This document shows, piece after piece, positions 9,457 to 37,469 of a stretch of 43,027 nucleotides of DNA (positions are counted from its first letter, which is position 1; each line of letters begins with the position of its first letter). The notes beneath the pieces were generated by a model. That model had not been told where the DNA came from, made no database searches, and saw nothing but the letters and a program-made list of their open reading frames with translations. Source of the stretch: Candidatus Pacearchaeota archaeon (lineage in GTDB: Archaea > Nanobdellota > Nanobdellia > Pacearchaeales > GW2011-AR1); NCBI GenBank assembly GCA_030699205.1, contig JAUYJY010000058.1:1-43027 (forward strand), read 5' to 3'. Made by a program: the position numbers and the translations under genes.

Positions 9457-9569
9457 TTGTCCTCAATAAAAAGAGCAAATCATATATATAAATTTTGTGC
9501 AAGCACGCAAAGTTCGTTTAAACCGAAACATTTAAATATGTGTGTAATCAAAAAGTTACAACGAAAAAA

Positions 9570-17189: not shown

Positions 17190-19964
17190 TTAAGCTGTAA
17201 CTAAGGTAGCAGCATTTGCTGTTGTTCCTTTCAACTTGGTTCCTACATCCGTAGATACACCTGTTTGTGTTGTCAAGTATTGAGCAGCATTCAATGTGTC
17301 TCCTTGTTCATAACCAGCAACCAATGTAGCTACTTTTGTAGCAGCCCAAGGGTTAGCGAATGTTTCAATAACATATTCGCCAGCACCCGCACCAGTTGCG
17401 GCAGTCCATTGAGGACCACATCCGTTTCCACTAGCACCAACTAAGGTGTATGCAGCAGTGTTCACACAGCTTCCACCAACAACAATCAAGTTCTTGGTTT
17501 CCATTCCAGAACCAATTAAATCACTATCCATGATTTTTACATCACCAAGTGTTGTTGTAGCACCAGTTCCTTCCAAGGAATCAAAGTACAATTCAGCAAC
17601 AACCTGTGTTTCAGGATAACTGATTTCAGCAGTATACTGGTCAGATGTTGATCTGTCTGTTGTAACTAATGTACCCCATAGGTCCATCATATCATACAAA
17701 TCTTCATCGCTGTCTCTCTGGAATCCACTTGCTCCATATGTAGAGCCATCAACCATATCAGCATCCTTGTTCCAAGAAAAGTCCACGTCACTAACACCAA
17801 TACCATTATTTGAATCTCCGTTTCCAGAGAATTCAACAACAACTGCCTCATAGACATTGTTCTCATCTTGTTCTTCAAACAAAACAATTGCAGGTCCTGT
17901 AATTGGATTTGCATTCCCGCTAACAGTATCGTTAAGCTGGATTATTACAGTATTATTTGAAGATTTGCCAGTAGTATACGGACTTCCAGCAGCAGTTCCA
18001 ACTACAGTAGTTGAATAAACTCCAAAAGTAAGCTGACCAACTGCAAAAGTAAAGTTTTCTAATCCTGCGCCTGCAGTTACGTTAAAGGTTCTGTGGTTTA
18101 CAATTGTTGCTGATCCTAAATCAGCAGCTGTAAGCGAAAAGTTCCATACACCATCTTCTATTCCTGCAAGAGCTCCACCACTTCCATTAGGTGCTGCAAA
18201 TATCTCTGTGTATCCATCACCATCTGGGATCTTAAACGAACTTACATTAACGCCTCCTTCGCCCTTCCAATTACCTAAATCAATCGTTAAAGGCTCATAA
18301 AACATTAAGTTCGCACCCTTGTTTGTTTCAATAGTTGGATAAAGAACCATGGCATTTCCAGTGCTATGTGCCTTATTATCAAGCTGCACATATTGGTCAT
18401 TGTCTACGTTGTCAGATTTATCATATCTGTAAGTGACATCATATTCAATTCCTGCAATGGTTATTGTTCCTGTTCCTTCACTTGTAATTTGTGCCTCCCA
18501 TGTTTGAGTTGTATCAAAAGCATTTTGGAATACCACCTTATCACTTGTGTAGATAGGAGTTCCAGAACTATTTGTCAATTGGCTTAATTTTACCAACAAT
18601 CCTGTTTCTTCATTACCAACAACTGAGTAAGCAGAAGAGTTAATCTTTGCCATTTCACTAGTAAAGATTTGCCAGTCAGAACTATCTCCTAAGAATCTCT
18701 TACCCCAAGCACTAGATTCGTTGTTAATAAATTGGAAGTTATTCAAAGAATTTCCTTGCCAATTAGTGAATCCAATGTTCATCTTGTCGTTTCCAGAAAC
18801 ACCAAGAGAAATAGTTTCTCTGTTTTCAGTATCATCTGTCTCAATGCTCAATCCTGTTAATGCAAGCCTAAAGCTTCCAAATACAGGGTCTACAAAAGCT
18901 CCACCAGACCGAATAGCATCAGAATCTCCATCGGGAGCGAACGCTTGAATAGTTAGTGTAGTAAGATTTCCAGGGTTTTGTCCTAGAACATAATCAACAT
19001 TTGTTCCATCAATAGACACAGCATCTGTTCCTTGTGATACAGTCGAAGCATCTGTCAAAGTCAATCTATTAGCACCAACAAGAATTTGTGCTCCAACGCT
19101 TGCAAGTGCAGTAGTCTCATGTGCAGTATCTACGGCAACTTCCAATCCTTGGATTTTCTTTGATTGTGCTTCATTAACTTTCTTACTATCTGAATTTCCA
19201 GAAGAATCTGTAACCCTAATGGTTGCAGAAGTATCTGTTGCAGATGTAAGCTCAACAGTATATGTTTCTCCGTCAATCACGACAACCTCTGAAGGGTTAT
19301 CGGAACCACCTCCGATACTTAAATCAAGAGTCATAGCAGACTTAAACAGAACTAAGTCAGTTCCATCTGTCGCAGCAGAAACTACAAAGTCTTGTCCAAA
19401 CAAATTGATTGTTTCTCCTTCAGAATCTGTATGATTCAACATAACAATTTTATTGAATGTTATTGTAGAATTGTACAGGTAACTTCCAGAAGAAGATGAG
19501 AATGTGACTCCAACAGTTGGATCATCATTTGAAGTAGGTATAGAACCAAAAACAACTCTTGGATTTGATCCAGGAACAATTTTGAATTCTACGTTTGCTT
19601 CAACATCTCCGGAAAAACTTGTATCTGTTAATACTGCAGGCAAGTTTGATTCAGTTACAGTAGTTCTAACTGAATTAATGCTTGCGTTTAATTGCAAAGG
19701 TGTTGAACTTGTGAACAAAGGATAAGCGTCACTGCTAACAGTTGTAGCAGTAGCTCCCGCAGATGCAAGAGCAGCACTCAAATCACTTGTAATGCTTGTA
19801 ACAGCACTCAAATCCAAGTTTTCACCATAAACAATAGCTACATTAGATGCACCATTCTGAACGAACGGAGCAGGATAACTAGCAGCAGCAGCAAGTGCGA
19901 TTGTAGAACCCACCATAGCTGTAGAAGCCAAAGCAGATGCAATCTTTCTAAAATTAAATTTCAT
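17190..19964 (-). CDS. Major surface (S-layer-like) protein, 924 aa
   Basis: Signal peptide MKFNFRKIASALASTAMVGSTIALAAAAS. The composition is Thr/Ser/Gly/Ala/Asn-rich with many N-x-S/T sequons and almost no Cys. GC is visibly higher than the surrounding sequence. The gene has a strong SD and a T-tract terminator. Confidence 0.65.
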   Translation of the reverse strand: MKFNFRKIASALASTAMVGSTIALAAAASYPAPFVQNGASNVAIVYGENLDLSAVTSITSDLSAALASAGATATTVSSDAYPLFTSSTPLQLNASINSVRTTVTESNLPAVLTDTSFSGDVEANVEFKIVPGSNPRVVFGSIPTSNDDPTVGVTFSSSSGSYLYNSTITFNKIVMLNHTDSEGETINLFGQDFVVSAATDGTDLVLFKSAMTLDLSIGGGSDNPSEVVVIDGETYTVELTSATDTSATIRVTDSSGNSDSKKVNEAQSKKIQGLEVAVDTAHETTALASVGAQILVGANRLTLTDASTVSQGTDAVSIDGTNVDYVLGQNPGNLTTLTIQAFAPDGDSDAIRSGGAFVDPVFGSFRLALTGLSIETDDTENRETISLGVSGNDKMNIGFTNWQGNSLNNFQFINNESSAWGKRFLGDSSDWQIFTSEMAKINSSAYSVVGNEETGLLVKLSQLTNSSGTPIYTSDKVVFQNAFDTTQTWEAQITSEGTGTITIAGIEYDVTYRYDKSDNVDNDQYVQLDNKAHSTGNAMVLYPTIETNKGANLMFYEPLTIDLGNWKGEGGVNVSSFKIPDGDGYTEIFAAPNGSGGALAGIEDGVWNFSLTAADLGSATIVNHRTFNVTAGAGLENFTFAVGQLTFGVYSTTVVGTAAGSPYTTGKSSNNTVIIQLNDTVSGNANPITGPAIVLFEEQDENNVYEAVVVEFSGNGDSNNGIGVSDVDFSWNKDADMVDGSTYGASGFQRDSDEDLYDMMDLWGTLVTTDRSTSDQYTAEISYPETQVVAELYFDSLEGTGATTTLGDVKIMDSDLIGSGMETKNLIVVGGSCVNTAAYTLVGASGNGCGPQWTAATGAGAGEYVIETFANPWAATKVATLVAGYEQGDTLNAAQYLTTQTGVSTDVGTKLKGTTANAATLVTA

Positions 19965-20388: not shown

Positions 20389-20748
20389 ATGGCAAAGAAA
20401 ACAAAGACAAGACAGATAATTCTTAAGCAAGAATCAGGAACATTTACTACCCTCTTCAAAAAGTTCTCCGGAGAGAAAAAAAACTATGATTTTCAAGGAC
20501 TTGCCTCTCTAAGAAACCTGCTTTCAAATGAAAAAGCAAGAACATTAGATTTCATAAAAAATAAAAATCCCAAATCAATATATGATTTATCAAGAAAACT
20601 CAAAAGAGATTTTAAATCTGTAAATGATGATGTTAAATTATTGGAAAAATTTGGATTCATAGATTTAATTCAGGAAAAAACAGGGAAAAGAAATAGGTTA
20701 AGACCCGTGATTATCATAGATTCTATAAACATAGAAATTAACATTTAA
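20389..20748 (+). CDS. Small HTH/winged-helix DNA-binding protein
   Basis: 119 aa. KARTLDFIKNKNPKSIYDLSRKLKRDFKSVNDDVKLLEKFGFI is an HTH-wing pattern. The gene is convergent with the end of operon 1. Confidence 0.5.
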   Translation: MAKKTKTRQIILKQESGTFTTLFKKFSGEKKNYDFQGLASLRNLLSNEKARTLDFIKNKNPKSIYDLSRKLKRDFKSVNDDVKLLEKFGFIDLIQEKTGKRNRLRPVIIIDSINIEINI

Positions 20749-21272
20749 TAACATAACTTCAATGTCGTGGTAATACTCCCAGGAAATTCAGGAGTCCAAT
20801 AAGAATTTCCAAAAACACTCCCTTCGCAAGAACCTCCCATAATCTCCAAAATTTCCTCTCTCTGTCCTGCCTGATTTGAATTATTATGGCTATAAACTAT
20901 CCCTAATTCATACCCCTTAATCTGAAAATCTTCTCCATATTTCCAAGAAGCCTCTAAAATATTTGTAAATGTTTCATTCAAGACATTGCAAGTCTTTTCT
21001 TCATTAACGCATTCATTATTTGATGAATAACATTCACTTATCAATTCATCTAACTTCAATAAACTTCTTCCCTCGCTTAACGCACATTCGGTGGTTTGCT
21101 CCATAGAACTCTCTAAAAACTGATAAACTTCCTGACTCTCTCTCTGGCTGTCTCCTCCCTTTCTTAATGAAATCCCCAAGAAAACCATTATTACCACCAT
21201 AACTAATACAATTATCAAAACAAATCCCACTATTTCTTCCTGCCCTCTCTTTCTCACTTTATCTTTCTCCAT
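20745..21272 (-). CDS. Prepilin-like protein (class III signal peptide), 175 aa
   Basis: The N-terminus is MEKDKVRKRG|QEEIVGFVLIIVLVMVVIMVFLGI, followed by a soluble domain with 4-5 Cys. Confidence 0.6.
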   Translation of the reverse strand: MEKDKVRKRGQEEIVGFVLIIVLVMVVIMVFLGISLRKGGDSQRESQEVYQFLESSMEQTTECALSEGRSLLKLDELISECYSSNNECVNEEKTCNVLNETFTNILEASWKYGEDFQIKGYELGIVYSHNNSNQAGQREEILEIMGGSCEGSVFGNSYWTPEFPGSITTTLKLCY

Positions 21273-21315
21273 TTATTTTTAATTCCAAATATTCTTATCA
21301 TCTTTTTGTTTATTT

Positions 21316-21837
21316 TCATTCAACACTTTCAAACCCCATTACAATCTTTCCTAACTCACATTCATCCTGTTCAATCCCTGAATTATATCTGCATAAAGAA
21401 ACAAAAGCCTCATAAGATTCATAATTCTCTTTTTTAGTCAATGTAATTTGATTGCATCTTGGATAACTTTGTGGCGTGCATTCTTCAGTGCTATATAATG
21501 GATAAACTCTTATTATTTGCAATAAACTCACATCCTTCCAGAAATTTTGATATGAATTCCTATTTTTCAATAAAAATGCCTTATCCAAATCAACACACCC
21601 CGCACAATCTCCAAAATTTCCCCAAAGAAATTCCGGACTCCCTGAAATTTTCCTCACAGATTCTATAACTTCCTGTTTTCTAAAATCTGAAGCTTCTTCT
21701 TTTATTGAAGAAAACTTAATAGAGGTATAAAATATAGCAACAATTACAAAAAATATAATCGTAGCCACTAAAACAAAAGCCATTTGCTGTATTTTTACCT
21801 GCCCTTTAGAATACGCCACATTTCGTAATTTTGTCAT
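21316..21837 (-). CDS. Prepilin-like protein (class III signal peptide), 173 aa
   Basis: The N-terminus is ...AYSKG|QVKIQQMAFVLVATIIFFVIVAIFY. It overlaps the upstream gene by 32 nt. Confidence 0.6.
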   Translation of the reverse strand: MTKLRNVAYSKGQVKIQQMAFVLVATIIFFVIVAIFYTSIKFSSIKEEASDFRKQEVIESVRKISGSPEFLWGNFGDCAGCVDLDKAFLLKNRNSYQNFWKDVSLLQIIRVYPLYSTEECTPQSYPRCNQITLTKKENYESYEAFVSLCRYNSGIEQDECELGKIVMGFESVE

Positions 21838-22741
21838 TTTTATCCTTTAAAATATCTGAGTTTCCTTCAATTCTCTGGAGTTCATTAGAACTCTCAATTA
21901 AAACAGCAGACGCAAAACTTCTCAAATCCTGCTCTAAACTATTTGAACATCCGCTATCTTCTAAAAATTTTGCCTTTTCTGCATAAACATAAGAAAGTTC
22001 ACTTGCCCTTTTCATCAGTCTTTTTATCTGACATTCATATATCTCTGGCTCTGAAAAAATTGCACCATATATCAATGAATCAGTATAATGCAAATCGCTT
22101 CCTTGCTTTGAAATAATTTTTGCGTTAGAATTCACATTAATATCACATCCAATTAAATCAAAACAAACTTTTACACTTTCATCAGGGCAAGAAGAAACTC
22201 TACTACTAATATTTATTCCGATGTTTCCCCCTGCAGATAAGTCCTCAATTTCCTCTTCTATATCTCTTGGAGGGTTAATAAAACAATAGTCTTTAGAATA
22301 CATGAAAATTGCATCTCCGACTTTAAAAGGCATTTCAAATGGTTTTACTATGACATTCATTTCTTTTCCTTCTTCAAAATTTTCAGAAAAAACATATTTA
22401 TTAAATGAGCTTTTTGGATTGCTTTGCGTTCCCCATTCATCTCCCACTCCAATTTTAGAGGCGGTGCTTATCTCCTGCCTCCCAAAATTTCCATTTTCAA
22501 AACAATCATTAAAGACCCTCGTTTCTTGCACAAATCTTATTTTTACATACTTACTGTCTTCCAGATTTGTTTCAATCGGATTTAATAAGTTGCTTAATTC
22601 TGCAGAAACAAATGTGTCTGAAACCTTTCTATTTGTGTCTACAAATTTTGTTGCAATAAAAATTGCAAGAAATAAAATTACTGCTCCGACAAGTATAGCA
22701 AACAACCAATTAAACCCAAATTCTAATCCTCTTTTTTTCAT
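21806..22741 (-). CDS. Prepilin-like protein (class III signal peptide), 311 aa
   Basis: The N-terminus is MKKRG|LEFGFNWLFAILVGAVILFLAIFIA. It shares 1 nt with the upstream gene (its start at 22741 meets that gene's stop). Confidence 0.6.
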   Translation of the reverse strand: MKKRGLEFGFNWLFAILVGAVILFLAIFIATKFVDTNRKVSDTFVSAELSNLLNPIETNLEDSKYVKIRFVQETRVFNDCFENGNFGRQEISTASKIGVGDEWGTQSNPKSSFNKYVFSENFEEGKEMNVIVKPFEMPFKVGDAIFMYSKDYCFINPPRDIEEEIEDLSAGGNIGINISSRVSSCPDESVKVCFDLIGCDINVNSNAKIISKQGSDLHYTDSLIYGAIFSEPEIYECQIKRLMKRASELSYVYAEKAKFLEDSGCSNSLEQDLRSFASAVLIESSNELQRIEGNSDILKDKNDKITKCGVF

Positions 22742-23250
22742 TAAGGCCTCTTTATCCTCACTGAAGAATCAAAATCTCCTTTCTCAAGCCTGACCTCAAT
22801 TTTTCCGCTTTTAACTTCAAAACATTCAAAGTCACTTCCCAATCCCGTCAAACTAATTCTATCAACTTCAGAAAATGCAAAATCTCCCGCAAACTTCATT
22901 GGATAAATAAATCTGTTTGTGTTTTCTTTTTCAAAATTAGAGCTGAACTCCTTAAATTCATCATACTCTTCCTTGTATTGCAATTCATAAGTAGAACCTT
23001 TTAAGTCCCCAAAACAAACTAATTCAATATTTCCCGGAAGATTAAAAGAAAAAACTTTGTTAGTTATAGCACTTCCCCAAATTTCATCAATCGTTTCCTG
23101 AAATTCCTGATGAAAAAGCACAACCTCAGTATCGCTTCCCAATCCAATGAAAGAAATAATTATATAACTCGCAACTCCCACAATAGCGATTATCATAATT
23201 ATGGAAAAAATCATTCCAAACGACAAAGACAGCACACCTCTTTTATTCAT
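22741..23250 (-). CDS. Prepilin-like protein (class III signal peptide), 169 aa
   Basis: The N-terminus is MNKRG|VLSLSFGMIFSIIMIIAIVGVASYII. Confidence 0.6.
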   Translation of the reverse strand: MNKRGVLSLSFGMIFSIIMIIAIVGVASYIIISFIGLGSDTEVVLFHQEFQETIDEIWGSAITNKVFSFNLPGNIELVCFGDLKGSTYELQYKEEYDEFKEFSSNFEKENTNRFIYPMKFAGDFAFSEVDRISLTGLGSDFECFEVKSGKIEVRLEKGDFDSSVRIKRP

Positions 23251-23285
23251 ATTCCAGAGAGCAAAAACAAGTTTAAATGCTTTTC

Positions 23286-24359
23286 TTAATCTTTTCCAGA
23301 TTCAGTCAGCTCTTTTCTAAGGTTTTCTTTAAAATCTTTTAAATCCTCTTTTCTAATCCTAAAACCTGCGGCGGCATTATGTCCTCCCGCGACAGAATCT
23401 TTCAGACCCTTAATGGCGTTTTTGCATATTTTATTGACGTCTCTTTTCCCAAGATGGTCCCTTATTGACCCCTTAAAAAATTCATCCCCCGAGTCCCTCA
23501 AGATAACATAAGTGTTATCCACATCATCAACAGATAATTTAGTGCAAACAGCAGAATTGATGTCAAACCTTGGTTCTAAAATTCCAATATAAACTTTAGC
23601 ATCTCTATAGTATTCTGCATTTTTCTTATATTCTTCAATACACCTATCAAATTCCTCTGAAACAATCTTATTTTTTTCTTCAATCTCTTTGAGATTTTTA
23701 TTCTTTATAATTTCATAAGCTTTAATCTGATTATCCTTATAGTAATTAATCAAAGAGCTCAATTTAATCATAAGCACCCCGCTTTCAAATTCCCCGACTT
23801 TATTTATATTGTCTTCTGTAATGTCTTTATTCCTTTCCTTTAAAAAATCAAAATGTTCTTTCTTGTTAAAAGCAAATTCATGAATCATCGCAGGGTCAAT
23901 CAGCCAGTCAATATCTTTCTTGTCAAATAAATCTCTTCCAAGATAGTAAATCAGCCAAGAGGTACAATCCGCACTCTCCGCCTTAATTATTTTATCAGAC
24001 CAGTTAAAATCTTCTGCACTTGGATGGTGATCAACAAACAAAAAATTAATTTTCTCAATCCTTTTAACTAAATCAGAATCCAGGCTATCAAGATTTATAT
24101 CTAAAACAATTATCTTATTTATTCTCCCCGATTCTGCGGCTTTCTCAATTCTCCTAATTTCTTCCATTGTGTAAGGGATAAAGTTAATTATTTCAGGAAT
24201 AATATTTTTCTGCCTTAAAATTTCAGAAACAAAAATAGCGGAAACCATCCCATCTAAACAATTTGAATGGGCAAAAATTCCAACTTTATCATCCTTATTT
24301 AAAGAGTTAAAGAAGCTCTCAATTTTCTCCTTAGATTTAACATAAAAACTTTCTTCCAT
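23286..24359 (-). CDS. DHH/DHHA1-family phosphoesterase
   Basis: Motifs FAHSNCLDGMVS (DxD-type motif I), VLDIN, FVDHHPS (DHH) and GGHNAAAGF (DHHA1 GGGH-like). Confidence 0.8.
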   Translation of the reverse strand: MEESFYVKSKEKIESFFNSLNKDDKVGIFAHSNCLDGMVSAIFVSEILRQKNIIPEIINFIPYTMEEIRRIEKAAESGRINKIIVLDINLDSLDSDLVKRIEKINFLFVDHHPSAEDFNWSDKIIKAESADCTSWLIYYLGRDLFDKKDIDWLIDPAMIHEFAFNKKEHFDFLKERNKDITEDNINKVGEFESGVLMIKLSSLINYYKDNQIKAYEIIKNKNLKEIEEKNKIVSEEFDRCIEEYKKNAEYYRDAKVYIGILEPRFDINSAVCTKLSVDDVDNTYVILRDSGDEFFKGSIRDHLGKRDVNKICKNAIKGLKDSVAGGHNAAAGFRIRKEDLKDFKENLRKELTESGKD

Positions 24360-24395
24360 TAAAAACCTATAAAAATCACCTAATTAAAAACTTTC

Positions 24396-26492
24396 CTATA
24401 CAATATTAGTCGCCGAAGCAGTTAAACTGCATTGGTTTGGTGCAGGTTGATTTCCAAACTCGTCAGCACATTTTATATAATAAACAATATTGGGTTTCCA
24501 TTCAGCATAACTTGTTGTTTTTTCAGTCGCGGGATTATGTATCATCTTTATTCCCTCGTCAATATTAAAGTTACAGCTGTTTAATGAATAAGTGCATTCG
24601 GCAGGCTCATTCGTAACTATCTTTAAAGTATCCAAAAAATGATATGCCCTTGCAACCATTGGTTCTGTAACATCTACAAATACATTAAAGCTCGTGGAAT
24701 CTTCCGCACTATTCCCTCCCGCATCTATACATCTAAAGAAATAGTTATAATCTCCTGAGATTAATGTTAAAACTTGCCGATGTTCAAATCCCCCCGAATC
24801 AAACATCGCAACATAACTCCCTTCTTCTCCAGAATCAGAAAAATAACAAACTGCTTCTCCTTCCTTTGCCCCGTCATCCGTCTTCACATATAATTCAATT
24901 TCAACAACTTCTGTGCTTCCAGTTATTGTTTCATTAGGAGCAACGGAAAGAATGCTCAATGGTTGACTTCCAAGCAAATTGAGATTATAACTTCCCACAT
25001 TAACATTTCTCTCATTATCTGGCTTTTTAGGCTGGTCCTTGCATCTAAAATAATAATTATTCTCTTGTCTGTCAACTATTCCAGTGAGAGTAGTAGAACA
25101 AGTATAAAGCTCTCTTGCATTTATTTCAGTTAATTTTGTTGCACATTGCATTTCTTGTTCCATTTCCTCATACGCCTTGTCTTGAACACTCCATTTACAT
25201 TCCGAAGGTTCATTTACATAAATTTCCATCGGGGTTTCCCCTGAATTATATGAAATATAACTTCCCGATTTAATGGAAGTATCAACAATTATCGGCGGAG
25301 TTGTATCCGGACTTGGGTCCACACAAAATTGGAAGTCAAACTCTCCCACATTCTCATTCCCATTTTTATCCCTGCATCTAACAAATAGATTATATCTCCC
25401 ATCATTCTGTAATTCAGGAGCTTCTGAATTTATCGCATCAGGCGACGGCAAACTCATTACCTGTGTATGATTATATAAATAAAAGTTGCTTTTTCCAAAG
25501 AAGAAACTCATTTCATCCAATGTATCTTTATGAACTATATCTATTTTACATTGTGCTGGTTCATTAGTGGTTATTCCAAAGCTTAATGGTGTAAACGCCT
25601 GCAAACACCCGTTACTCACATCTTCCCTAACAATTTTAGCTCCCAAACTTGGAGGCCTCGTATCATGATTAGTGTATTTATGCTTTTCCGTTAATGGCTC
25701 CTGCCAAGGTGTTATAGTCGGAGGACTTGCATCATTTGGATTCACCCAAGCACATTTTTCTTCAGTAGTTCCGGAATTTACAATCTCACATGCTTGCCCT
25801 AAAGCCCTGCACCTATATTCAGAGCAAGGCCTAAATGGGTCTGCGTTGCATTTCTCACAATCCCCTCCGCCGACAGGAGCTTCAAAAGGAAGACATTGAA
25901 AATCAACCCTGACTTCCTTTTCAGATTTATATAATAAAATAAATACAACAACACCGACCGTAATTCCGATAATTGGTCCTGCAACTCCCTGAGTCAATCC
26001 ATCAATCCCAAATAATGTATCTTTAGCAGCACTACCAATCAAATTAGAAGAAAAAAATCCCGCAAAAGTTCCAACACCCGCCGCAGTGCTTAAAGCATCA
26101 GCCACATTTTTATCAACCCCAAATAAAGTCGTCAATAACTTAACCCCCATATACACAGAAAGCCCCCAAACAGCCCCCTGCATCAACGCACTCGGAATTT
26201 TCCCCGGCGTCGCACCAAACGCTTCTCCAGAATATAACTTCCCGAAGAAACCTGATTCTGTTGGGTTTGGAGTTGTTCCTGCCTCTCTTCCAGCCTGCCA
26301 AGCTTTATCCCTTCCGAGTAATTTATCGAATAAACTCCAAGTAGGTTCTCCTCCTTCTTCCTGCCCGCTAACCCTCTGCGTTTCCCCAATCAAAAACGCA
26401 AACGAAACAACAGAAAAAACTATAAGAAATATTTGCGTAAAAACCAACGTCGTCCCAACTTTATACGGGGGAAACTTTCCTCTCTTTTGCAT
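24396..26492 (-). CDS. 698-aa membrane/surface protein. It has an N-terminal anchor, a Gly-rich membrane region, a Cys-knot-like segment and Ig-like repeats, and is a paralogue of the C-terminal part of the 1333-aa protein.
   Basis: VDFQCLPFEAPVGGGDCEKCNADPFRPCSEYRCRALGQACEIVNSG aligns with VDFSCLPWQPPSGGQSCEECDSDDLGCSEYKCNSLGQNCELLNEG in ORF 33463-37464. The NEPSECKWS and NEPAECTYS repeat markers are shared. Confidence 0.75.
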   Translation of the reverse strand: MQKRGKFPPYKVGTTLVFTQIFLIVFSVVSFAFLIGETQRVSGQEEGGEPTWSLFDKLLGRDKAWQAGREAGTTPNPTESGFFGKLYSGEAFGATPGKIPSALMQGAVWGLSVYMGVKLLTTLFGVDKNVADALSTAAGVGTFAGFFSSNLIGSAAKDTLFGIDGLTQGVAGPIIGITVGVVVFILLYKSEKEVRVDFQCLPFEAPVGGGDCEKCNADPFRPCSEYRCRALGQACEIVNSGTTEEKCAWVNPNDASPPTITPWQEPLTEKHKYTNHDTRPPSLGAKIVREDVSNGCLQAFTPLSFGITTNEPAQCKIDIVHKDTLDEMSFFFGKSNFYLYNHTQVMSLPSPDAINSEAPELQNDGRYNLFVRCRDKNGNENVGEFDFQFCVDPSPDTTPPIIVDTSIKSGSYISYNSGETPMEIYVNEPSECKWSVQDKAYEEMEQEMQCATKLTEINARELYTCSTTLTGIVDRQENNYYFRCKDQPKKPDNERNVNVGSYNLNLLGSQPLSILSVAPNETITGSTEVVEIELYVKTDDGAKEGEAVCYFSDSGEEGSYVAMFDSGGFEHRQVLTLISGDYNYFFRCIDAGGNSAEDSTSFNVFVDVTEPMVARAYHFLDTLKIVTNEPAECTYSLNSCNFNIDEGIKMIHNPATEKTTSYAEWKPNIVYYIKCADEFGNQPAPNQCSLTASATNIV

Positions 26493-26692: not shown

Positions 26693-27031
26693 TTAATTTA
26701 AAATTTTCCCAATATTCATCTTTAATTCAGGTATATTTTCTTCTACAACTTTCCAAATAGTTTCTAAGTTAACACCAAAATAGTGATGCATCAGTTTATC
26801 TCTCATTCCCGCGATTTTAATCCATTCAATATGGGGATATCTTCTTCTAAAATTATCTGGGATATTCTTCACAGCCTCGCCAATCACTTCAATACTTCTT
26901 ATTAATGCATTTTGCAATTTTTTATCTTTTAAAAAGTCAGATTTAGCGATGCCCTTTGTAAATTCTTCAATATCTTTTATGGAATCGATTATGTGCCTTA
27001 AAAATATCAAAGAATCTTTCTTTTCATTCAT
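26693..27031 (-). CDS. hepT: HepT-like HEPN (DUF86) toxin
   Basis: R-x4-H motif in GMRDKLMHHYFGVN. 112 aa, overlapping the upstream NTase gene by 4 nt. Confidence 0.8.
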   Translation of the reverse strand: MNEKKDSLIFLRHIIDSIKDIEEFTKGIAKSDFLKDKKLQNALIRSIEVIGEAVKNIPDNFRRRYPHIEWIKIAGMRDKLMHHYFGVNLETIWKVVEENIPELKMNIGKILN

Positions 27032-27309
27032 AAAATATTGACCTCTTCACTTAATATTCTTTTTTTAAGCAGATAATTAATCCCCCCATAAGTAAGCAAA
27101 TCCACTTTTTTCTTCAGCACTTTCTTAATTTCCATTTCCATTTCAACTAAATCAAGCAAACTTCCATCAAAGTCAATCAAAATATCCACATCACTATTTT
27201 TTTTCTGCTCCCCTCTTGCGTAACTACCAAAAATTCCTGCTTTTTTTACCCCATACTTCTTCAAAACAGAAATTATTTTTCCCTTAATTTTATTAATTTC
27301 TTTATTCAT
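27028..27309 (-). CDS. mntA: MntA-like minimal nucleotidyltransferase antitoxin
   Basis: GIFGSYARGEQKKNSDVDILIDF (GS...DxD). Confidence 0.8.
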   Translation of the reverse strand: MNKEINKIKGKIISVLKKYGVKKAGIFGSYARGEQKKNSDVDILIDFDGSLLDLVEMEMEIKKVLKKKVDLLTYGGINYLLKKRILSEEVNIL

Positions 27310-27343
27310 AAAAATAAGTATCTTAATTGATATATAAAATTAT

Positions 27344-27510
27344 CCAATCAAAAAAAACTAAACACAGAAAAAACTATCAAGAATATTTGCCCAAAGACTA
27401 AATTATTAATTTATACAGTATCTCCGATGAGTTTTCTTAAGGGAACTTTGAATAATCAACCTTTCCTTCAAAGTTCTCTTAACTCTAAGATTTATCTTAT
27501 AAATCTTACA
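27344..27510 (-). repeat. F1: degenerate copy of the F repeat
   Basis: ccaatcaaaaaaaactaaacacagaaaaaactatcaagaatatttgcccaaagactaaatta aligns with F3. The distal part is decayed, with a ~40-nt insertion, and there is no ATG. Confidence 0.5.
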
Positions 27511-27623
27511 ATTATCCTGCAAAATCAGAGAGAGGATAATTATTTCTCGAGTAAATATTATCTAAAACCAGATGTCTGGTCTATGAGATAATTATTAAAA
27601 TAGTTTCTTTTGCAATTTAATTC

Positions 27624-27717
27624 TATAGTCTAAGACATTTATAATTGAAAGGTATTTGTCTTAGACTATTAGCAGAAGAACAAAAAACTGTTCAAAATAT
27701 TTTGTCTTCTGCTATAT
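27624..27717 (+). mobile_element. R-type MITE-like repeat, copy R5
   Basis: Canonical sequence. The stem-2 change agcGg to agcAg converts a G-T pair to A-T. Confidence 0.85.
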
Positions 27718-27785
27718 CTGAAATACCATCATAACAGAAAGATTTAAATAGTATAATCGTAATTATACTAATCGTAATTATACAA

Positions 27786-29108
27786 ATGGAATTCAAAGAC
27801 AGGAAAAACGAATTAAAAGAAATAAAAAGTATTTTAGATAGTAAGAACTTTGAATTTTTGATAATATATGGCAGAAGAAGAATAGGAAAAACAGAGTTGA
27901 TATTAGAATCAACAAAAAATAAAAAAAGAATTTATTATTTAGCAACAACAGAAAAGAACGCAGAAAGATTTTACAATGTATGCTTAGAATATAGTAAAGA
28001 TGTTGGAAAATTAAAACAAGATATTGAAATAATAATAGATTATTTAAAAGACAAGACAGAAGTTATAATAATTGATGAATTTCAAAATTTAATAAAAGAA
28101 AATGGCAATATTTTAAACATCTTCCAAAGCCTAATTGATACAAAATTAAAACACACTAAATTAAAATTAATATTGCTTGGTTCATCAGTTTCAATAATAA
28201 CGTCCAAGGTATTAAGCTATAAAAGTCCTTTGTACGGGCGAAGAACAGCATCTTTTAAATTAAAACCTATAAACTTCTTCGACTTAAAAGAATTCTTTCC
28301 AAATAAATCCTTGCAAGAGTTAATTGAAATATATGGTTTTTCAGATGGAATTCCATACTATATAATAAAGATTAATGAAAAAGAAAACTTTTGGAAATGG
28401 TTTGAAAATGAAATTAAACAAGAAAGAAGTTTTTTAAGAGACGAAATAGACTTTATAATGCGATACGAATTCGATAACCCGAGTACTTATAAAATAATTT
28501 TGGAAGCAATCGCAAATGGAAAAAGTAAATTGAATGAAATAAGGCAATATACCAAATTAGAAAGAACAGATATTAGTCCTTATATAAAAAATCTTTTAGA
28601 CGTTGATTTAATTAAAAGAGAAGTTCCTCTAACAGAGAACTTAAAATCAAGAAATGGAAGATACTTTATAAGTGATAACTTTTTATCATTCTGGTTTAGG
28701 TTTATTTATCCAAATTCAAGCAGTATAGAATCCGGATTATTCAAAATTGAAAGAATAAAAGAGAAATATGCAGAATACATTGGCAAGATATTCGAGAAAG
28801 TTGTATTGCAGTATATAATAAAAAATAAAATAATTGAAGCAGATAAAATAGGAAGGTGGTGGTTTAAAGATAAAGAAATAGATTTAATAGCATTAAATGA
28901 GAAAAATAAAGAGGCAACTTTTATAGAGTGTAAATGGAAAGAAGGTATAAATCCAATAAGCCTGCTTCATGATCTTAAAGAAAAGGCTATTCATTTCGAA
29001 TGGCATAATAACAAAAGAAAAGAAAAATACTTTCTTTTTGCTAAATCTTTTAGTAAAGAAATAGAAGATAAAGATGTAACTTTAATCGAGATTAAAGACA
29101 TGCAATAA
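27786..29108 (+). CDS. Archaeal-type AAA ATPase with a C-terminal DUF234-like (nuclease-fold) domain
   Basis: Walker A YGRRRIGKT and Walker B VIIIDEFQ. The C-terminal EIDLIAL...ATFIECKW resembles a D...ExK nuclease core. Confidence 0.75.
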   Translation: MEFKDRKNELKEIKSILDSKNFEFLIIYGRRRIGKTELILESTKNKKRIYYLATTEKNAERFYNVCLEYSKDVGKLKQDIEIIIDYLKDKTEVIIIDEFQNLIKENGNILNIFQSLIDTKLKHTKLKLILLGSSVSIITSKVLSYKSPLYGRRTASFKLKPINFFDLKEFFPNKSLQELIEIYGFSDGIPYYIIKINEKENFWKWFENEIKQERSFLRDEIDFIMRYEFDNPSTYKIILEAIANGKSKLNEIRQYTKLERTDISPYIKNLLDVDLIKREVPLTENLKSRNGRYFISDNFLSFWFRFIYPNSSSIESGLFKIERIKEKYAEYIGKIFEKVVLQYIIKNKIIEADKIGRWWFKDKEIDLIALNEKNKEATFIECKWKEGINPISLLHDLKEKAIHFEWHNNKRKEKYFLFAKSFSKEIEDKDVTLIEIKDMQ

Positions 29109-29113
29109 AGTAA

Positions 29114-29219
29114 TATAGTGCAACAACTTAGTTCTTCGGTTCTTTTTTGTTGTTGCACTATTAGCGGAGCAACTAAAAGCAACCGAAAGATTTAGTTGGT
29201 CTGCTATATATATTTTATC
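29114..29219 (+). mobile_element. R-type repeat, divergent variant R6 (R-b)
   Basis: It has the same termini and linker (tatagt...actattagcgga...tctgctata), but both stems and both loops are replaced by different, still complementary, sequences. Confidence 0.75.
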
Positions 29220-29234
29220 AAATCACAATCAAAA

Positions 29235-29366
29235 ACGCGAACGAAACAACAGAAGAAATTATCAAAAAAATTTGCGTAAAACCAAATTATAATTTAAGAC
29301 ACCAACTCTTTTTTGCATATGTTAAATAAAGATTTATTGTTTGTAAATATTAGTGGAATTAAGCCA
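29235..29366 (-). pseudogene. F2: truncated copy of the 5' end and promoter of the 698-aa gene
   Basis: The minus strand reads ATG CAA AAA AGA GTT GGT..., giving MQKRVGVLNYNLVLRKFF-stop. The upstream tttgtaaatattagtgg matches F0. Confidence 0.65.
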
Positions 29367-29412
29367 TTTCCCTTATAAGAATGTTTATAAGTTAAATTCT
29401 CTATTATTAAAA

Positions 29413-29775
29413 ATGGAAAAAGAATATAAATTATGGATGAAAAAGGCAGAAGAAGATTTAGACACGGCAAAGTATAATTTTGAAGGAAAAAAATTTTCGG
29501 CAAGCTTATTTTTTTCGCAACAAGCAGCCGAAAAGGCACTCAAAGCTTTTAACATAAAAATAAATAAAGAGTTAATTAAAACACATGATTTGTCTCTTCT
29601 TGCAAGAAAAGTAAATGCCCCTGTGGAAATAGAAAATTTGTGCAAATCCCTTAGTCCCGCATACCAATCAACGAGATACCCCGATATAATTCAGAAAAAT
29701 GACATGAAAGATGAGGCAAAAGAACTGCTCAAATCAGCGGAGGAAATTGTAGAATGGGCAAAAAAGAAATTATAA
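29413..29775 (+). CDS. HEPN-domain protein (classical HEPN, partner of the downstream NTase)
   Basis: 120 aa starting from MEKEYKLWMKKAEEDL. The patterns FSQQAAEKALKA...HDL..L and YQSTRYPD are typical of HEPN. It overlaps the NTase gene by 22 nt. Confidence 0.7.
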   Translation: MEKEYKLWMKKAEEDLDTAKYNFEGKKFSASLFFSQQAAEKALKAFNIKINKELIKTHDLSLLARKVNAPVEIENLCKSLSPAYQSTRYPDIIQKNDMKDEAKELLKSAEEIVEWAKKKL

Positions 29776-30071
29776 GAATGATTAATGGCTTTATAAAAAA
29801 AGCACAAAAAGAAATTGCAATAAATAAAGTAATATTATTTGGAAGCCAAGCATCTAATACAACGCATAAAGACAGCGATATAGACTTAATAATAGTATCT
29901 CCAGATTTTGAGAGTATGAGTGCTATTCAACGTGCCGCAAAACTATACAACTATTGGGAAGCCCTGTATCCTGTGGATTTTATTTGTTACACTCCAAAGG
30001 AATTTAATATTCTAAAAAGAAGAATTACCATTGTAAAAGAAGCTCTTTCCAAAGGAATTATTGTAGTCTGA
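29754..30071 (+). CDS. Minimal nucleotidyltransferase (MNT-type)
   Basis: LFGSQASNTTHKDSDIDLIIVSP (GS...DxD). Confidence 0.75.
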   Translation: MGKKEIIRMINGFIKKAQKEIAINKVILFGSQASNTTHKDSDIDLIIVSPDFESMSAIQRAAKLYNYWEALYPVDFICYTPKEFNILKRRITIVKEALSKGIIVV

Positions 30072-30221: not shown

Positions 30222-30692
30222 TTAATTTCCATCTCCTTGTTTAGAAAGATAACCATGTAAATAACCACTGATATACTTTTTAATCATCTTGTCCCTTTCA
30301 TCATCTTTTTTGATATGCTTATATCTCTCTCTAGCATTTTCCATAGCTCTCATTAATACTTTCCGAGGAATATTGTTTTCTCTTAAAATTTCAAAAATCT
30401 CCTTCCCACTATTTTGAGTATAACTTCCATTTTCTTGCCCTGTATAAACATTAACTTCACTCCTCCCAACATCAGCAATCACAGCTCTATTTATTGCACT
30501 CCCAAGAAGCGACGCAGCAGGGCTCCCTTTACTGGCCCCCAATCCTCCAATACCAGAACCAAGAAGAAGTCCTCCGACCTGTGAATCTGTCATTCCACAT
30601 CCAGAAGTCAAAGAACCAGCCACAAGAACCAATCCAGCCAATCCACCTTTGACGGCTCTCCCCAAACCACTTTTCTGTGAATCAGAAACCAT
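30222..30692 (-). CDS. Glycine-zipper lipoprotein-like protein
   Basis: Lipobox-like LTSGC and a GxxxG-rich segment GGLLLGSGIGGLGASKG. The C-terminal half is charged and helical. GC is visibly higher than in the neighbouring sequence. Confidence 0.55.
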   Translation of the reverse strand: MVSDSQKSGLGRAVKGGLAGLVLVAGSLTSGCGMTDSQVGGLLLGSGIGGLGASKGSPAASLLGSAINRAVIADVGRSEVNVYTGQENGSYTQNSGKEIFEILRENNIPRKVLMRAMENARERYKHIKKDDERDKMIKKYISGYLHGYLSKQGDGN

Positions 30693-30823
30693 ATTCTTTC
30701 AAGATCAAATCTCTATTTAAACTTTCTGTAGTTTTAGGCTTTGCATGAGATTCGGGTGTTTTCATAGAAAATAACGGGAAATAAAATTCTTCTCTGCTCT
30801 TTTTATATTCACTTTTCTCATAA

Positions 30824-30917
30824 TATAGTCTAAGACATTTATAATTGAAATGTGTTTGTCTTAGACTATTAGCGGAAGAACAAAAAACTGTTCAAAATAT
30901 TTTGTCTTCTGCTATAT
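30824..30917 (+). mobile_element. R-type MITE-like repeat, copy R7
   Basis: Canonical termini and stems. Loop 1 differs (ttgaaatgtgt). Confidence 0.85.
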
Positions 30918-31080
30918 TATAAATAGTGTTGGTTATTAATCAAATTTTCCATATTTTAACTCATATTTAATAATACAACCCCTAATGGTAAAATAGAACG
31001 GAAAATAATTCTAGGTGATTGATTGATTTACAGGTAGGAATAATTAAATCTCACGCAAATCCGTCGTTTTATCCCAACAA

Positions 31081-32628
31081 TCATATTTCTTCGCTTGTAA
31101 CTTTATACCCAGAATCATATCCTTGTCTTCCAAGCCAATTCAACGAAGGTCCGCAATCTCCCAATGCACTGCAAATTTCTCCCTTGTCTTTTTCCCATTC
31201 TTCTGTAAGGCATTCGCATCCCTCAACACATTCTTCTCCCCCAAACAATCCTTCTTCAAACTTTACAATGCAGACAGCATTTCCTTGTGAGCAAATTTCA
31301 AGTGTTTCTGCATCATCCCAGAAGTTAAATCCTGGAGAATTTTCAGGAAAGCAACTGCCAGTTCTCTCCGTTGTATTTGTTTGCAAGATGACCCCTTCCT
31401 TCCAGAAACAATCTCCCTTATCTTCATTTTCACAATCTCTTTGCTCTGTCTGTCCGGCACAATACTGCCATCTATTTACTTTACAAACTGCTTGCGAAAA
31501 ACCAGAAGTTTCTTCTTGGATGCATTCTTCCGCCCTAAAGTCAGAGCATTGTTCTAAAACTTCTTCTCCATTAATACAAAGATGCCTATAAAACCTGCTT
31601 CCAACCGTATTTTTGCCGTCCCCAATACTTCCAAAATCATCATTCACACACCAGCTTTCTCCATGCAAATAATCATTTCCATTCTCTGTATCTTTACAGT
31701 TTAAATCAGCACATATAAAATCTCCATAAGTCGCAGATTTACCTGCGATATTCTCTGCCCTGCAATAGCTTCCTTCCAGATAATTGCAATTTCCACAAGA
31801 ACTACTTCCAGCATTTCCACTTCCCGGACTGCAACTCTCATCTTTTGGTTTTATATTGGTCCAATATTCCGCGTCATTTACTTTACTTGCATCATAAATA
31901 TTTGCGGTATTCCCGCAAGAATCTATAAAATAAACCTCATCATTCCCTGGATTGCATGTTGTTTGCGTCGTTGGTCCGCAATTAGTCCCCAACTCTTCGG
32001 CACTGCATAATTTTCCGGAATAAAAATTTCCATCTGTAATAGTTATATTGCTTTCTCCCGTGCCTGCTTTCTGTGACCCTTCACATTCACTTCTCGTAGT
32101 AAATTCGCACGTCTTTTCAAATTCAAACTCATAAACACAAGCACCCCTCTCTTGTGTCTGCACTTTTTGTATGCACGCAAGTTCGTTCTGGACAGAAGTA
32201 TCATAATTTGTTTTTAATCCAAGAGACGCAGATAGTTTCTTGCATCTGACTAAAGAAACAAAAGCCGCCTGGTCTCCAAGAATACAGCATCCCAATGCAC
32301 ATTGAGGCGGGCTTTCTTCACTCCAAACGCCCCCATTATCATTGCAAACTAATTGGGGAGTGTTATCTAAACAAATTCCTTCAGAAGAATCATAGCAAAC
32401 CCCTGGTCTGCAATAACTTGTTGAATCACACGAAGTAGGCACTGCCCTCGCACCAGGAGCACATTCTTCGGCAGGCACATTCTGACAGGAAGCACCTGTA
32501 TTTGTCTGCTCACAACACACCGTCGCCGAACTTCCCTGTGCAAAAACAAAATCCGTATTAAAATAAAAAACTCCCCCTGATAAAACTAATAAAAACACAA
32601 TCCATATAGCAATTATTTTTCTTTTCAT
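31081..32628 (-). CDS. 515-aa secreted cysteine-rich protein, a paralogue of the N-terminal domain of the 1333-aa protein
   Basis: The start was moved to MKRKIIAIWIVFLLVLSGG (a Sec-type signal), whose ATG lies 1 nt after the upstream gene's stop. I count about 43 Cys. EVYFIDSCGNTANIYDASK matches EVYFIDSCGNRGNIYDSNK, and SALGDCGPSLNWLG matches MSLGDCGASVNYNG. Confidence 0.75.
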   Translation of the reverse strand: MKRKIIAIWIVFLLVLSGGVFYFNTDFVFAQGSSATVCCEQTNTGASCQNVPAEECAPGARAVPTSCDSTSYCRPGVCYDSSEGICLDNTPQLVCNDNGGVWSEESPPQCALGCCILGDQAAFVSLVRCKKLSASLGLKTNYDTSVQNELACIQKVQTQERGACVYEFEFEKTCEFTTRSECEGSQKAGTGESNITITDGNFYSGKLCSAEELGTNCGPTTQTTCNPGNDEVYFIDSCGNTANIYDASKVNDAEYWTNIKPKDESCSPGSGNAGSSSCGNCNYLEGSYCRAENIAGKSATYGDFICADLNCKDTENGNDYLHGESWCVNDDFGSIGDGKNTVGSRFYRHLCINGEEVLEQCSDFRAEECIQEETSGFSQAVCKVNRWQYCAGQTEQRDCENEDKGDCFWKEGVILQTNTTERTGSCFPENSPGFNFWDDAETLEICSQGNAVCIVKFEEGLFGGEECVEGCECLTEEWEKDKGEICSALGDCGPSLNWLGRQGYDSGYKVTSEEI

Positions 32629-32629
32629 T

Positions 32630-33388
32630 TTACACATACCCTTGAGGCCACACAAGGCTTCTCGAAGCAAAAGTAAACTCATCTCCTGTAATAACATTCC
32701 TTAATTTATATATTGTGTCTCCATTCCTTTTTATCTTTTCCATATTCAAATCAGGATAATAAGAAATATATAAACTCGTCTCCGCATCTCCAAAAGTGGA
32801 TTCAAACTGAATTATATTTGTTGCCAAAGAAAGCAAATCATACAATTCGGAGTTAATTGAAACAGCAAATTTACTAAACGTCTGTACTGATTCTTTTTCA
32901 ATGGTCATCGGAGAAAGAAAATTCACTGCAATTTTTCCCAATTCAATATCTACCTCAACTTGCCCTTGAGTTGTCCTCACGCTATATCCTTGGCTTTTGT
33001 ATTGCTCTTCCAAATTCTTTACACATTGTCTTGCTACTGGTTCTATTTTTCCCTTAATTTCTTCTTCCATATGTTTTACCAATAAAGGTTGTTGAACCTT
33101 GCATGGTAAATAATTTTCCGAAGTATAGCAAAGATATTGTATTTTATTATCTAAATACATCAGATAATTATCAGGCTCCAAATATCCCCCTTGCTTGCTT
33201 AAAACTGAAAGAGTATCTTTGACTTCAGATTCAATGCAACTTCTCAAATAAGAACTTGGATTTACCTCACTGCTTAAAATACTAACTCCAGGAAAGAAAA
33301 AAAGCAAGGTAATTCCGACAACTATCACTATTGCAATAATAATAAAAATAGTCACCTGCCCTCTTTTATCCATTATTATTTTACTCAT
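32630..33388 (-). CDS. Prepilin-like protein (class III signal peptide), 252 aa
   Basis: The N-terminus is MSKIIMDKRG|QVTIFIIIAIVIVVGITLLFFF. It is a paralogue of ORF 37470-38234. Confidence 0.65.
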   Translation of the reverse strand: MSKIIMDKRGQVTIFIIIAIVIVVGITLLFFFPGVSILSSEVNPSSYLRSCIESEVKDTLSVLSKQGGYLEPDNYLMYLDNKIQYLCYTSENYLPCKVQQPLLVKHMEEEIKGKIEPVARQCVKNLEEQYKSQGYSVRTTQGQVEVDIELGKIAVNFLSPMTIEKESVQTFSKFAVSINSELYDLLSLATNIIQFESTFGDAETSLYISYYPDLNMEKIKRNGDTIYKLRNVITGDEFTFASRSLVWPQGYV

Positions 33389-33462
33389 AGTTTATTTATA
33401 AATAATTGCTCTTTCCATTTTATCAATCATTTAGAAGATAATTTCTTCAAACATAGATTTTC

Positions 33463-37464: not shown

Positions 37465-37469
37465 TACAA

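Follow-up and report, generated by a model that had tools for sequence, protein, structure and literature searches.

A contig of Candidatus Pacearchaeota archaeon (GenBank assembly GCA_030699205.1, JAUYJY010000058.1), analysed here over its entire length of 43,027 bases and referred to below as the window, carries four consecutive small genes whose products of 169, 311, 173 and 175 amino acids (aa) are best read, on the strength of their sequences, as new and previously unnamed families of type IV pilin-like envelope proteins. These genes form the downstream part of a run of six minus-strand genes (operon 1), in which they follow the genes for a 698-aa membrane protein and a 357-aa DHH phosphoesterase. 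We propose, with a probability of about one half, that the four genes represent a pilin-like module of fixed order, which forms a short membrane-rooted complex and is part of a lineage-specific envelope island, the 698-aa protein being the split half of a larger protein and the DHH phosphoesterase a passenger. The six-gene run as such is real, but it is a composite of three evolutionary units which lie side by side.

A first-pass annotation, made from the sequence alone, had described six co-directional minus-strand genes, and all six open reading frames (ORFs) are found at the positions it gave (Table 1); likewise, the N-termini quoted for the four small proteins match the translations exactly. 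From the 698-aa gene to the 175-aa gene, the spacings amount to 36 nucleotides (nt), 35 nt, a 1-nt overlap, a 32-nt overlap and 43 nt, with the start of the 173-aa gene lying 32 nt inside the end of the 311-aa gene. The start/stop overlaps at the 169/311 and 311/173 junctions are compatible with coupled expression.

The four small proteins have in common an N-terminus of the prepilin type, which starts with [KR][KR]G and continues into a single strong hydrophobic segment in the hydropathy profile. The combination of [KR]G with an uncharged hydrophobic stretch of 18 residues within 8 residues occurs in 6 of the 44 non-overlapping ORFs of the window, namely in the 169-, 311-, 173- and 175-aa proteins and in the 252- and 254-aa proteins of a second gene group, operon 2, so that all occurrences fall into two clusters. 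Within the window, this signal exceeds chance.

Orthologue alignments of five families, with 31-43 sequences each, delimit the motif further. Numbered from the candidate cleavage site, position -1 is only G, rarely A or S, in the 169-, 311-, 173-, 175- and 252/254-aa families, and positions -2/-3 are K or R in five families. The 169-aa family (33 orthologues) has G at -1 in 31 members and A in two, K/R at -2/-3, and F at +6 in 32. The 173-aa family (32 sequences, one of them N-terminally truncated) shows Q at +1, K at +3 and Q at +5 in 31 sequences each, and -1 is occupied by G (25), A (5) or S (1). Among the 31 orthologues of the 175-aa protein, Q at +1, E at +3, G at +6 and F at +7 are each found 31 times, which results in a fixed QEE-IVGF start, and -1 is G in 22, A in six and S in three. 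Wherever +1 is covered, it is thus Q in the 173-aa (31 sequences), 175-aa (31) and 252/254-aa (43) families. The 311-aa family carries E or D at +2 and F or W at +5/+7, and acidic residues are fixed at +2/+3 in both the 175- and the 311-aa families.

In each of the four proteins, the first 30 residues of the putative mature form are the best-conserved part (0.65-0.69 versus 0.46-0.56). Profile-profile comparison links the N-terminal 30-60 residues of the six families (169-311 at 96.5%, 254-175 at 92%, 252-175 at 89% and 254-173 at 81%), and the homology between the 169- and 311-aa families spans the N-terminal 58 columns (hhalign 96.6%). The plain transmembrane anchors of two neighbouring proteins of 181 and 221 aa (g181 and g221) have no profile link to this six-family module. 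The all-vs-all comparison of the six small proteins, which had been proposed in the first-pass annotation, returns a common prepilin-like N-terminal module and no common globular similarity.

A basic leader, G/A/S at -1 and then ~20 hydrophobic residues, which define a class III signal peptide, were found in all tested families. The limitation of -1 to G/A/S and the invariant Q at +1 in three families are compatible with a prepilin-peptidase site. EppA substrates carry Q at +1, within a motif of the QxSxE type (cf. the description of PF04021). It is also conceivable, if rather unlikely, that the small proteins are uncleaved, type II signal-anchored envelope proteins which act singly, in S-layer anchoring, envelope biogenesis or pseudoperiplasmic functions, and that [KR]G-Q is a feature of the membrane interface. 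The tight linkage of the block to an S-layer gene and a regulator gene would fit such proteins, as would an S-layer protein without a membrane anchor of its own, the failure of all curated pilin models to match and the possible absence of the peptidase in DPANN archaea. For simple anchors, however, a -1 position limited to G/A/S, an invariant +1 Q and the sequence-level conservation of the first 30 residues are unusual, and the same module occurs on six otherwise unrelated families in one island, whereas the true anchors of g181 and g221 are without it.

Behind the common N-termini, the globular parts of the four small proteins share no pairwise similarity, and each family has its own invariant or near-invariant Cys (Table 1), which bears out the earlier description of different soluble parts with a few Cys each. 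The presence of conserved Cys in every family suggests disulfide-bonded extracellular heads. Scans of all six proteins of the run and of all orthologues in three family alignments against Pfam and NCBIfam recognised, apart from DHH, neither an enzyme nor a pilin family. The four small proteins are without any known domain, catalytic or otherwise, in these searches, which speaks against the possibility, considered in the first-pass annotation, that they are membrane-anchored enzymes. The 169-, 173- and 175-aa proteins belong to no Pfam family, and for the 173-aa protein a profile search of the PDB was also without match. More generally, PDB profile searches with the 169-, 311-, 173-, 175-, 252/254-, 538- and 698-aa families returned nothing significant; for the 169-aa family, the top match, to the N-terminal helix of the type IV pilin PilE1, has a non-significant E of 0.13.

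The 175-aa family is large, with 1363 representatives at 50% identity (E <= 1e-3), one of which, a JGI entry, carries the name 'PilX'. The 311-aa family comprises 281 homologues, none credibly named and none with a Pfam domain. An AlphaFold2 (AF2) model of the 311-aa protein, built from a 44-sequence alignment (pLDDT 87, pTM 0.81), consists of a 46-residue N-terminal helix (residues 7-52), a beta-sheet with strands between residues 64 and 155, and an alpha/beta and helical C-terminal part. Foldseek found nothing below E 0.04 for this model in the PDB or BFVD, the best PDB hit having an E of 0.13, and an enzyme or viral origin of the 311-aa protein was rejected on the basis of these missing matches.

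Gene order provides the second body of evidence. The window has a G+C content of ~33% and carries archaeal housekeeping genes (FtsZ, NusG/Spt5, L11, aIF5A, PCNA, primase) as well as a Methanococcus-type S-layer protein (Pfam/NCBIfam), and the closest homologues of the studied proteins are found in metagenome-assembled genomes labelled Pacearchaeota, Woesearchaeota or Nanoarchaeota. Related loci, named by L-numbers, were taken from three sets, comprising contigs on which the 698-aa protein has two homologues, 80 species-level genomes (from 572 stretches with genes for relatives), and 80 metagenome loci centred on the 175-aa family; their gene order was read by ORF calling and BLAST labelling. 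Linkage counts are based on the 74 loci with both a 169- and a 175-aa gene, the denominators 71 and 64 being subsets.

The order 169-311-173-175 is kept in 74 of 74 loci. A gene for an HVO_A0114-type regulator directly follows the 175-aa orthologue in 67 of 71, and an S-layer gene is at most three genes away from the block in 54 of 71, the rest being mostly cut by contig ends. In contrast, the 698-aa gene stands directly upstream of the block in only 34 of 64 loci and within three genes of it in 42 of 64. In L100, L137 and L158, the gene for a 538-aa protein of operon 2 directly precedes the 169-aa gene, with no 698-aa gene between them, and of the 83 loci built around the 698-aa gene, about 35 show the series 254-giant-252-538-x-698 followed by housekeeping genes, without the four-gene block. 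The block is therefore tied more tightly to the regulator and S-layer genes than to the 698-aa gene, and it is retained together beside the S-layer gene in many uncultured Pacearchaeota and Woesearchaeota. The 698-aa and DHH genes are separable neighbours and not fixed parts of one machine.

It is highly improbable that unrelated genes for membrane proteins and enzymes have come together in this run by chance, as they might in a compact genome, without forming a functional module. Genes lie close together in DPANN genomes, and the DHH gene and nearby toxin-antitoxin genes illustrate that unrelated genes do land at this site. For the four small genes, however, chance is contradicted by the uniform gene order, by the overlapping reading frames and by the common N-terminal module. 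In the same related loci, the cluster members are 35-60% identical to the window proteins and PCNA is ~72% identical, so the conserved order does not stem from the sampling of near-identical strains.

Across the relatives, the ancestral order reads PCNA-254-giant-252-538-(GT4, a family 4 glycosyltransferase, in some)-lipobox protein-698-169-311-173-175-regulator (convergent)-S-layer-g181-g221, in which the giant protein measures ~1200-1350 aa and the pilin-like N-terminus marks the 254-, 252-, 169-, 311-, 173- and 175-aa proteins. Since operons 2 and 1 are contiguous in relatives, they constitute one ancestral cluster; in the window they look separate because two HepT/MNT pairs and a DUF234 ATPase gene are inserted between them. 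This insertion (26693..30071) sits between the lipoprotein gene and the 698-aa gene; L002, L010, L011 and most other loci have no such insertion at this point. In 34 of 61 loci, the gene immediately upstream of the 698-aa orthologue codes for a lipobox-type protein, to which a 156-aa ORF corresponds in the window. A literature search found no description of this gene cluster.

The first-pass annotation had regarded operon 1 as a second, differently composed copy of the apparatus encoded by operon 2, a view which the contiguity of both in relatives does not sustain. Furthermore, the four small genes are single-copy, and what is duplicated is only the unit of one 25x-aa pilin-like protein plus one giant. 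The paralogy noted earlier between the 698-aa protein and the giant of operon 2 is upheld, although that giant, given as 1333 aa, corresponds to an ORF of 1343 aa in the present analysis. Over 584 columns, the 698-aa protein is 35% identical to residues 778-1332 of the giant (BLASTP, E 2e-96), and the alignment includes the VDFQCLP/VDFSCLP segment and three NEPxxC strands in each protein; the N-terminal anchors are 50% identical over 22 aa. The 538-aa protein, in turn, is paralogous to giant residues 80-640, and the 252- and 254-aa proteins are paralogous to each other. In L072, L077 and L080, 538-like and 698-like parts are fused into proteins of 1198-1385 aa with the architecture of the 1343-aa giant. 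From this paralogy of the 538- and 698-aa proteins to the two giant halves, together with the fusions in three loci, it follows that [25x-aa pilin-like protein + giant] is the duplicated unit; by its sequence, the 698-aa protein then represents the membrane and Ig-array half of a split second giant copy. The fused forms imply that the 538- and 698-aa proteins probably work together.

The 698-aa protein combines a signal/anchor helix (residues 17-35), a Gly-rich membrane region with helices at ~99-189, a Cys-rich knot (~200-250) and four to five Ig/FN3-like beta-sandwich domains. Its AF2 model (pLDDT 79.8) contains the N-terminal helix, three helices in the Gly region, the knot and the four to five beta-sandwiches; in the hydropathy profile, segments 17-35 and 169-187 are strong and 108-126 is weaker. 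These features fit an orientation in which the N-terminus is inside and the Ig array is outside. Foldseek matched the model to generic Ig/FN3 arrays only, e.g., PTP-delta, KIT and GhpA fragments, and Big_13 scored 25.8 bits, below its Pfam cutoff of 27. More than 1000 homologues exist, all of them unnamed and from Pacearchaeota/Nanoarchaeota, with a median identity of ~50% and many invariant Cys. The 698-aa ORF has a KRG as well, but a charged spacer stands between it and the helix. Given that spacer, the lack of KRG conservation and a family consensus of the Sec type (VxA/Q, with the slash at the cleavage site), a class III signal was rejected for this protein.

These properties bear on whether the four proteins could be minor pilins, or major and minor pilins, of an extended type IV pilus that has the 698-aa protein for its tip adhesin or basal anchor, depends on an ATPase and platform encoded elsewhere and, as a whole, constitutes a second operon-2 apparatus. 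Such a pilus, which we hold to be unlikely, would agree with the prepilin-like N-termini and with the presence of four different subunits, one of them large, reminiscent of GspH-I-J-K or FimU-PilVWX sets; the adjacency of the 698-aa gene in about half of the loci, the adhesin-like Ig-array ectodomain and reports of Fla and type IV pilus (T4P) genes in related DPANN lineages point in the same direction. However, a protein with about three membrane helices cannot ride on a pilus tip, so of the earlier proposal of a large tip or anchor protein only the membrane anchor remains tenable. As the split half of the second giant, the 698-aa protein moreover belongs with operon 2, and its linkage to the block is facultative. 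The four genes are unduplicated, an abundant small protein resembling a major pilin is not evident among the genes, and neither in the window nor in the related loci was a machinery gene detected.

The 357-aa protein is a DHH phosphoesterase, as had been annotated: DHH (38.2 bits, cutoff 28.1) and DHHA1 (29.9 bits, cutoff 25.9) both exceed their Pfam thresholds, and the translation contains the DHH and GGH motifs FVDHHP and AGGHNAAAGF. A RecJ identity was rejected, as the scores of 48.5 versus 396.9 bits (TIGR00644) and 33.9 versus 360 bits (archaeal RecJ) are far below the NCBIfam equivalog cutoffs. No solved relative was found at E <= 0.01, and the protein lacks a hydrophobic N-terminus. None of the 83 related loci contains a homologue of its gene, which occurs at this position only in this contig; its earlier inclusion in the unit is thereby overturned, and a functional role within the cluster was rejected. 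The DHH phosphoesterase is a cytoplasmic passenger specific to this contig. In about 30 of the 74 loci, a gene for a low-molecular-weight (LMW) phosphatase of ~135 aa, with a CxxNRFRS P-loop and a PF01451 match in L001, lies between the 169- and 311-aa genes. Two different cytoplasmic phosphoesterases are thus encoded at nearly the same spot, the LMW phosphatase between 169 and 311 in relatives and the DHH protein before 169 here.

Several points weigh against the proposal of a pilin-like module. No member of the families matched a curated pilin or class III signal model (Pfam, NCBIfam) above cutoff, and the best sub-threshold matches concern single sequences, namely Pilin_N (PF07790) in 1 of 43 (E 0.043), Class_IIIsignal (PF04021) in 1 of 33 (E 0.59) and DUF7288 in 1 of 31 (E 0.002). 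AF2 models were made for the 698- and 311-aa proteins, the latter being the sole modelled small protein, and the 311-aa model matched no solved pilin (Foldseek, PDB). As the first-pass annotation had already remarked, the window contains no gene for an assembly ATPase (T2SSE type), a platform protein (TadC type) or a prepilin peptidase (A24) by Pfam or motif scan, and none was detected in 162 distinct related loci either. The motif scans covered the window and these loci, the latter amounting to ~2.1 Mb, for the T2SSE Walker A motif plus GE[IVLM]R and for GxGD[..]K of A24 peptidases; the few GxGD matches in the loci lie inside giant or Cys-rich proteins or unrelated short ORFs and were dismissed, none being a credible peptidase. 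T4P systems are said to be missing from DPANN genomes (bioRxiv 10.1101/2020.05.14.094862), and one of the surveys lists Fla genes for Woesearchaeota and Nanoarchaeota, not for Pacearchaeota (PMC8407392); for both reasons the required peptidase may be absent in carriers of the module. Finally, common descent within a single order-level lineage may account for part of the conservation of gene order.

The lack of a nearby ATPase or platform gene is not disqualifying, since pilin genes are commonly located outside T4P operons, sometimes with S-layer-like genes alongside (PMC4858521). FlaB/H/I/J/K, and hence FlaI/J/K, are annotated in most Woesearchaeota and in Nanoarchaeota (PMC11606122; PMC8407392), and T4P are annotated in other DPANN archaea by another study. 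ArlG has been described to form a pseudoperiplasmic filament which is capped by ArlF/G and binds the S-layer, and its own processing does not require PibD (PMC8978795). By analogy, ArlF/ArlG offer a precedent for pilin-like proteins which may work without extrusion into a long filament.

Among known systems, archaeal type IV pilins and minor pilins, such as EpdA-E/MMP1685 of Methanococcus maripaludis and PilA1-6 of Haloferax, share with the present families a short basic leader whose last residue is G or A/S and ~20 hydrophobic residues, followed by a variable globular part of ~150-300 aa, and several pilin-like genes may likewise occur in tandem outside the ATPase locus (PMC4858521). The families described here differ in having no significant match to Pilin_N, Class_IIIsignal or arCOG-derived Pfam models, in acidic residues at +2/+3 rather than +5, and in Cys-rich heads. 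ArlF and ArlG (FlaF/FlaG) are also archaellin- or pilin-like with N-terminal hydrophobic helices, and their short stalk between membrane and S-layer parallels the linkage to an S-layer gene seen here. However, there is no detectable sequence similarity and no match to an archaellin family (Pfam, NCBIfam), the subunits number four instead of two, and no archaellum genes lie nearby; support for the likeness comes from the genomic linkage to the S-layer gene.

Bacterial GspH-I-J-K, and FimU-PilV-W-X with PilY1, resemble the run in their four pilin-like subunits in a row, one of ~300 aa, and in the large non-pilin surface protein alongside. The large partner here is an integral membrane protein, however, domain of life and machinery differ, and the 311-aa model has no fold match to GspK, PilX or any pilin in the PDB. 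In the Sulfolobus bindosome (Bas), class III signal peptides are carried by non-filament surface proteins and serve in the anchoring or organisation of envelope proteins. The bindosome thereby sets a precedent for class III signal peptides without long pili, in keeping with the substrate range of PibD (PMC4858521), whereas its substrates are sugar-binding proteins with recognisable domains and it has its own ATPase and membrane protein, BasE/F. The 698-aa protein itself is comparable to S-layer anchors of the SlaB type, which are membrane-anchored, have an extended beta-sandwich ectodomain and are encoded near the gene of an anchorless S-layer protein. It has no sequence relationship to SlaB, and its family features a multi-helix, Gly-rich membrane region and a Cys-rich knot and is, in many lineages, fused to a second Cys-rich ectodomain of 600 aa.

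The conserved motif, the order of the genes, their paralogy, the split and fused forms and the lack of known domains are observed; what we infer for the module concerns its cleavage, assembly and partners and its role in the envelope or in host contact. Membrane insertion would come first, for the four proteins and probably for those of 252 and 254 aa as well, after which a prepilin peptidase of the FlaK/PibD/EppA type encoded elsewhere would cut after the conserved G/A/S. Through the retained, conserved hydrophobic N-terminal helices, the four subunits could then associate in a short hetero-oligomeric stalk rooted in the membrane, much like a minor-pilin set or the pseudoperiplasmic ArlF/ArlG complex. 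The disulfide-stabilised heads of this stalk would sit under or in the S-layer and touch the latter, the ectodomains of the giant proteins, or both. The island, conserved in Pacearchaeota and Woesearchaeota, consists of the four-gene module, the S-layer gene, a divergent regulator, two paralogous giant membrane proteins with two ectodomains and two further pilin-like proteins; in it, the 698-aa protein would act as the membrane-anchored partner of the secreted, Cys-rich 538-aa protein. The role of the island likely lies in envelope organisation and/or host contact. A more far-reaching idea, to which we give little credence, is that in Pacearchaeota and related DPANN archaea, whose type IV filament machinery may be missing, the six pilin-like families self-assemble without a dedicated ATPase into a membrane-rooted stalk which tethers the anchorless S-layer and positions the two giant Cys-rich/Ig-array proteins; together they would represent an undescribed apparatus of the envelope and of host attachment, peculiar to this strongly host-dependent lineage.

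Table 1. Positions of the genes discussed, in the window or, where an L-number is given, in related loci. A slash marks the candidate cleavage site.
Feature	Positions	Strand	Basis or remark
698-aa membrane protein	24396..26492	-	paralogue of the C-terminal half of the 1343-aa giant
357-aa DHH/DHHA1 phosphoesterase, cytoplasmic	23286..24359	-	Pfam
169-aa pilin-like protein, MNKRG/VLSLSFGMIFS..., 2 invariant Cys	22741..23250	-	orthologue alignment
311-aa pilin-like protein, MKKRG/LEFGFNWLFA..., 8 invariant Cys	21806..22741	-	alignment and AF2 model
173-aa pilin-like protein, ...YSKG/QVKIQQMAFVLVA..., 5 invariant Cys	21316..21837	-	orthologue alignment
175-aa pilin-like protein, ...RKRG/QEEIVGFVLI..., 5-6 conserved Cys	20745..21272	-	orthologue alignment
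119-aa HVO_A0114-type winged helix-turn-helix regulator	20389..20748	+	Pfam PF25212, E 2.9e-15
924-aa S-layer protein	17190..19964	-	Pfam S_layer_C, 29.5 bits vs 23.9 cutoff
181-aa protein (g181)	14267-14812	-	
221-aa protein (g221)	13565-14230	-	
663-aa protein	9540-11531	+	
HepT + MNT pair	26693-27309	-	Pfam
ATPase_2/DUF234 gene	27786-29108	+	Pfam
HEPN + MNT pair	29353-30071	+	Pfam
Operon 2 as a whole	30222..38234	-	upstream part of the same ancestral cluster
156-aa putative lipoprotein, lipobox-like LTSGC (operon 2)	30222-30692	-	
538-aa secreted Cys-rich protein (operon 2)	31081-32697	-	
252-aa pilin-like protein (operon 2)	32630-33388	-	
1343-aa giant (operon 2)	33463-37494	-	
254-aa pilin-like protein (operon 2)	37470-38234	-	
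LMW phosphatase	L001:5014-5454; L005:9779-10213; L007:8568-8984; L012:12415-12831; ~25 further loci		
GT4 gene	L011:8240-9250; equivalents in L005, L007-L012		AglH-like, E 1e-30

Beside the four-gene block, the regulator gene is convergent with the 175-aa gene, with which it overlaps by 4 nt, and on its other side diverges from the S-layer gene. The 924-aa S-layer protein starts with a signal peptide but lacks, by hydropathy, a C-terminal membrane segment; without such an anchor, it must depend on another protein to stay on the cell. The genes g181 and g221, downstream of the S-layer gene, encode paralogues (hhalign 96.5%) with plain N-terminal membrane anchors, which are as syntenic as the four-gene block and belong to no known family. 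The gene for the 663-aa protein is also syntenic in relatives, and the C-terminal part of its product is Ig-like (CARDB/NPCBM_assoc). A sub-threshold match of this protein to the gamete fusogen family HAP2-GCS1 (E 6.7e-5, 22.1 bits versus a cutoff of 27.4) probably reflects a generic Ig-like domain, and a PDB sequence search with it was without match. In one sub-lineage, the GT4 gene lies between the 538-aa and lipoprotein genes; its presence hints that proteins of the cluster may be glycosylated.

Pacearchaeota and Woesearchaeota are abundant, uncultured and host-dependent archaea, and Pacearchaeota are described as unusually strongly host-attached (bioRxiv 10.1101/2020.05.14.094862). The present analysis defines a conserved island of wholly unannotated surface proteins with relatives in many species-level genomes, and separates its core members from passengers; it offers specific candidates to structural and proteomic studies. 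Should the carriers truly be without prepilin peptidase and assembly ATPase, the conserved motif of the cleavage type would point to a machinery-independent use of pilin-like modules.

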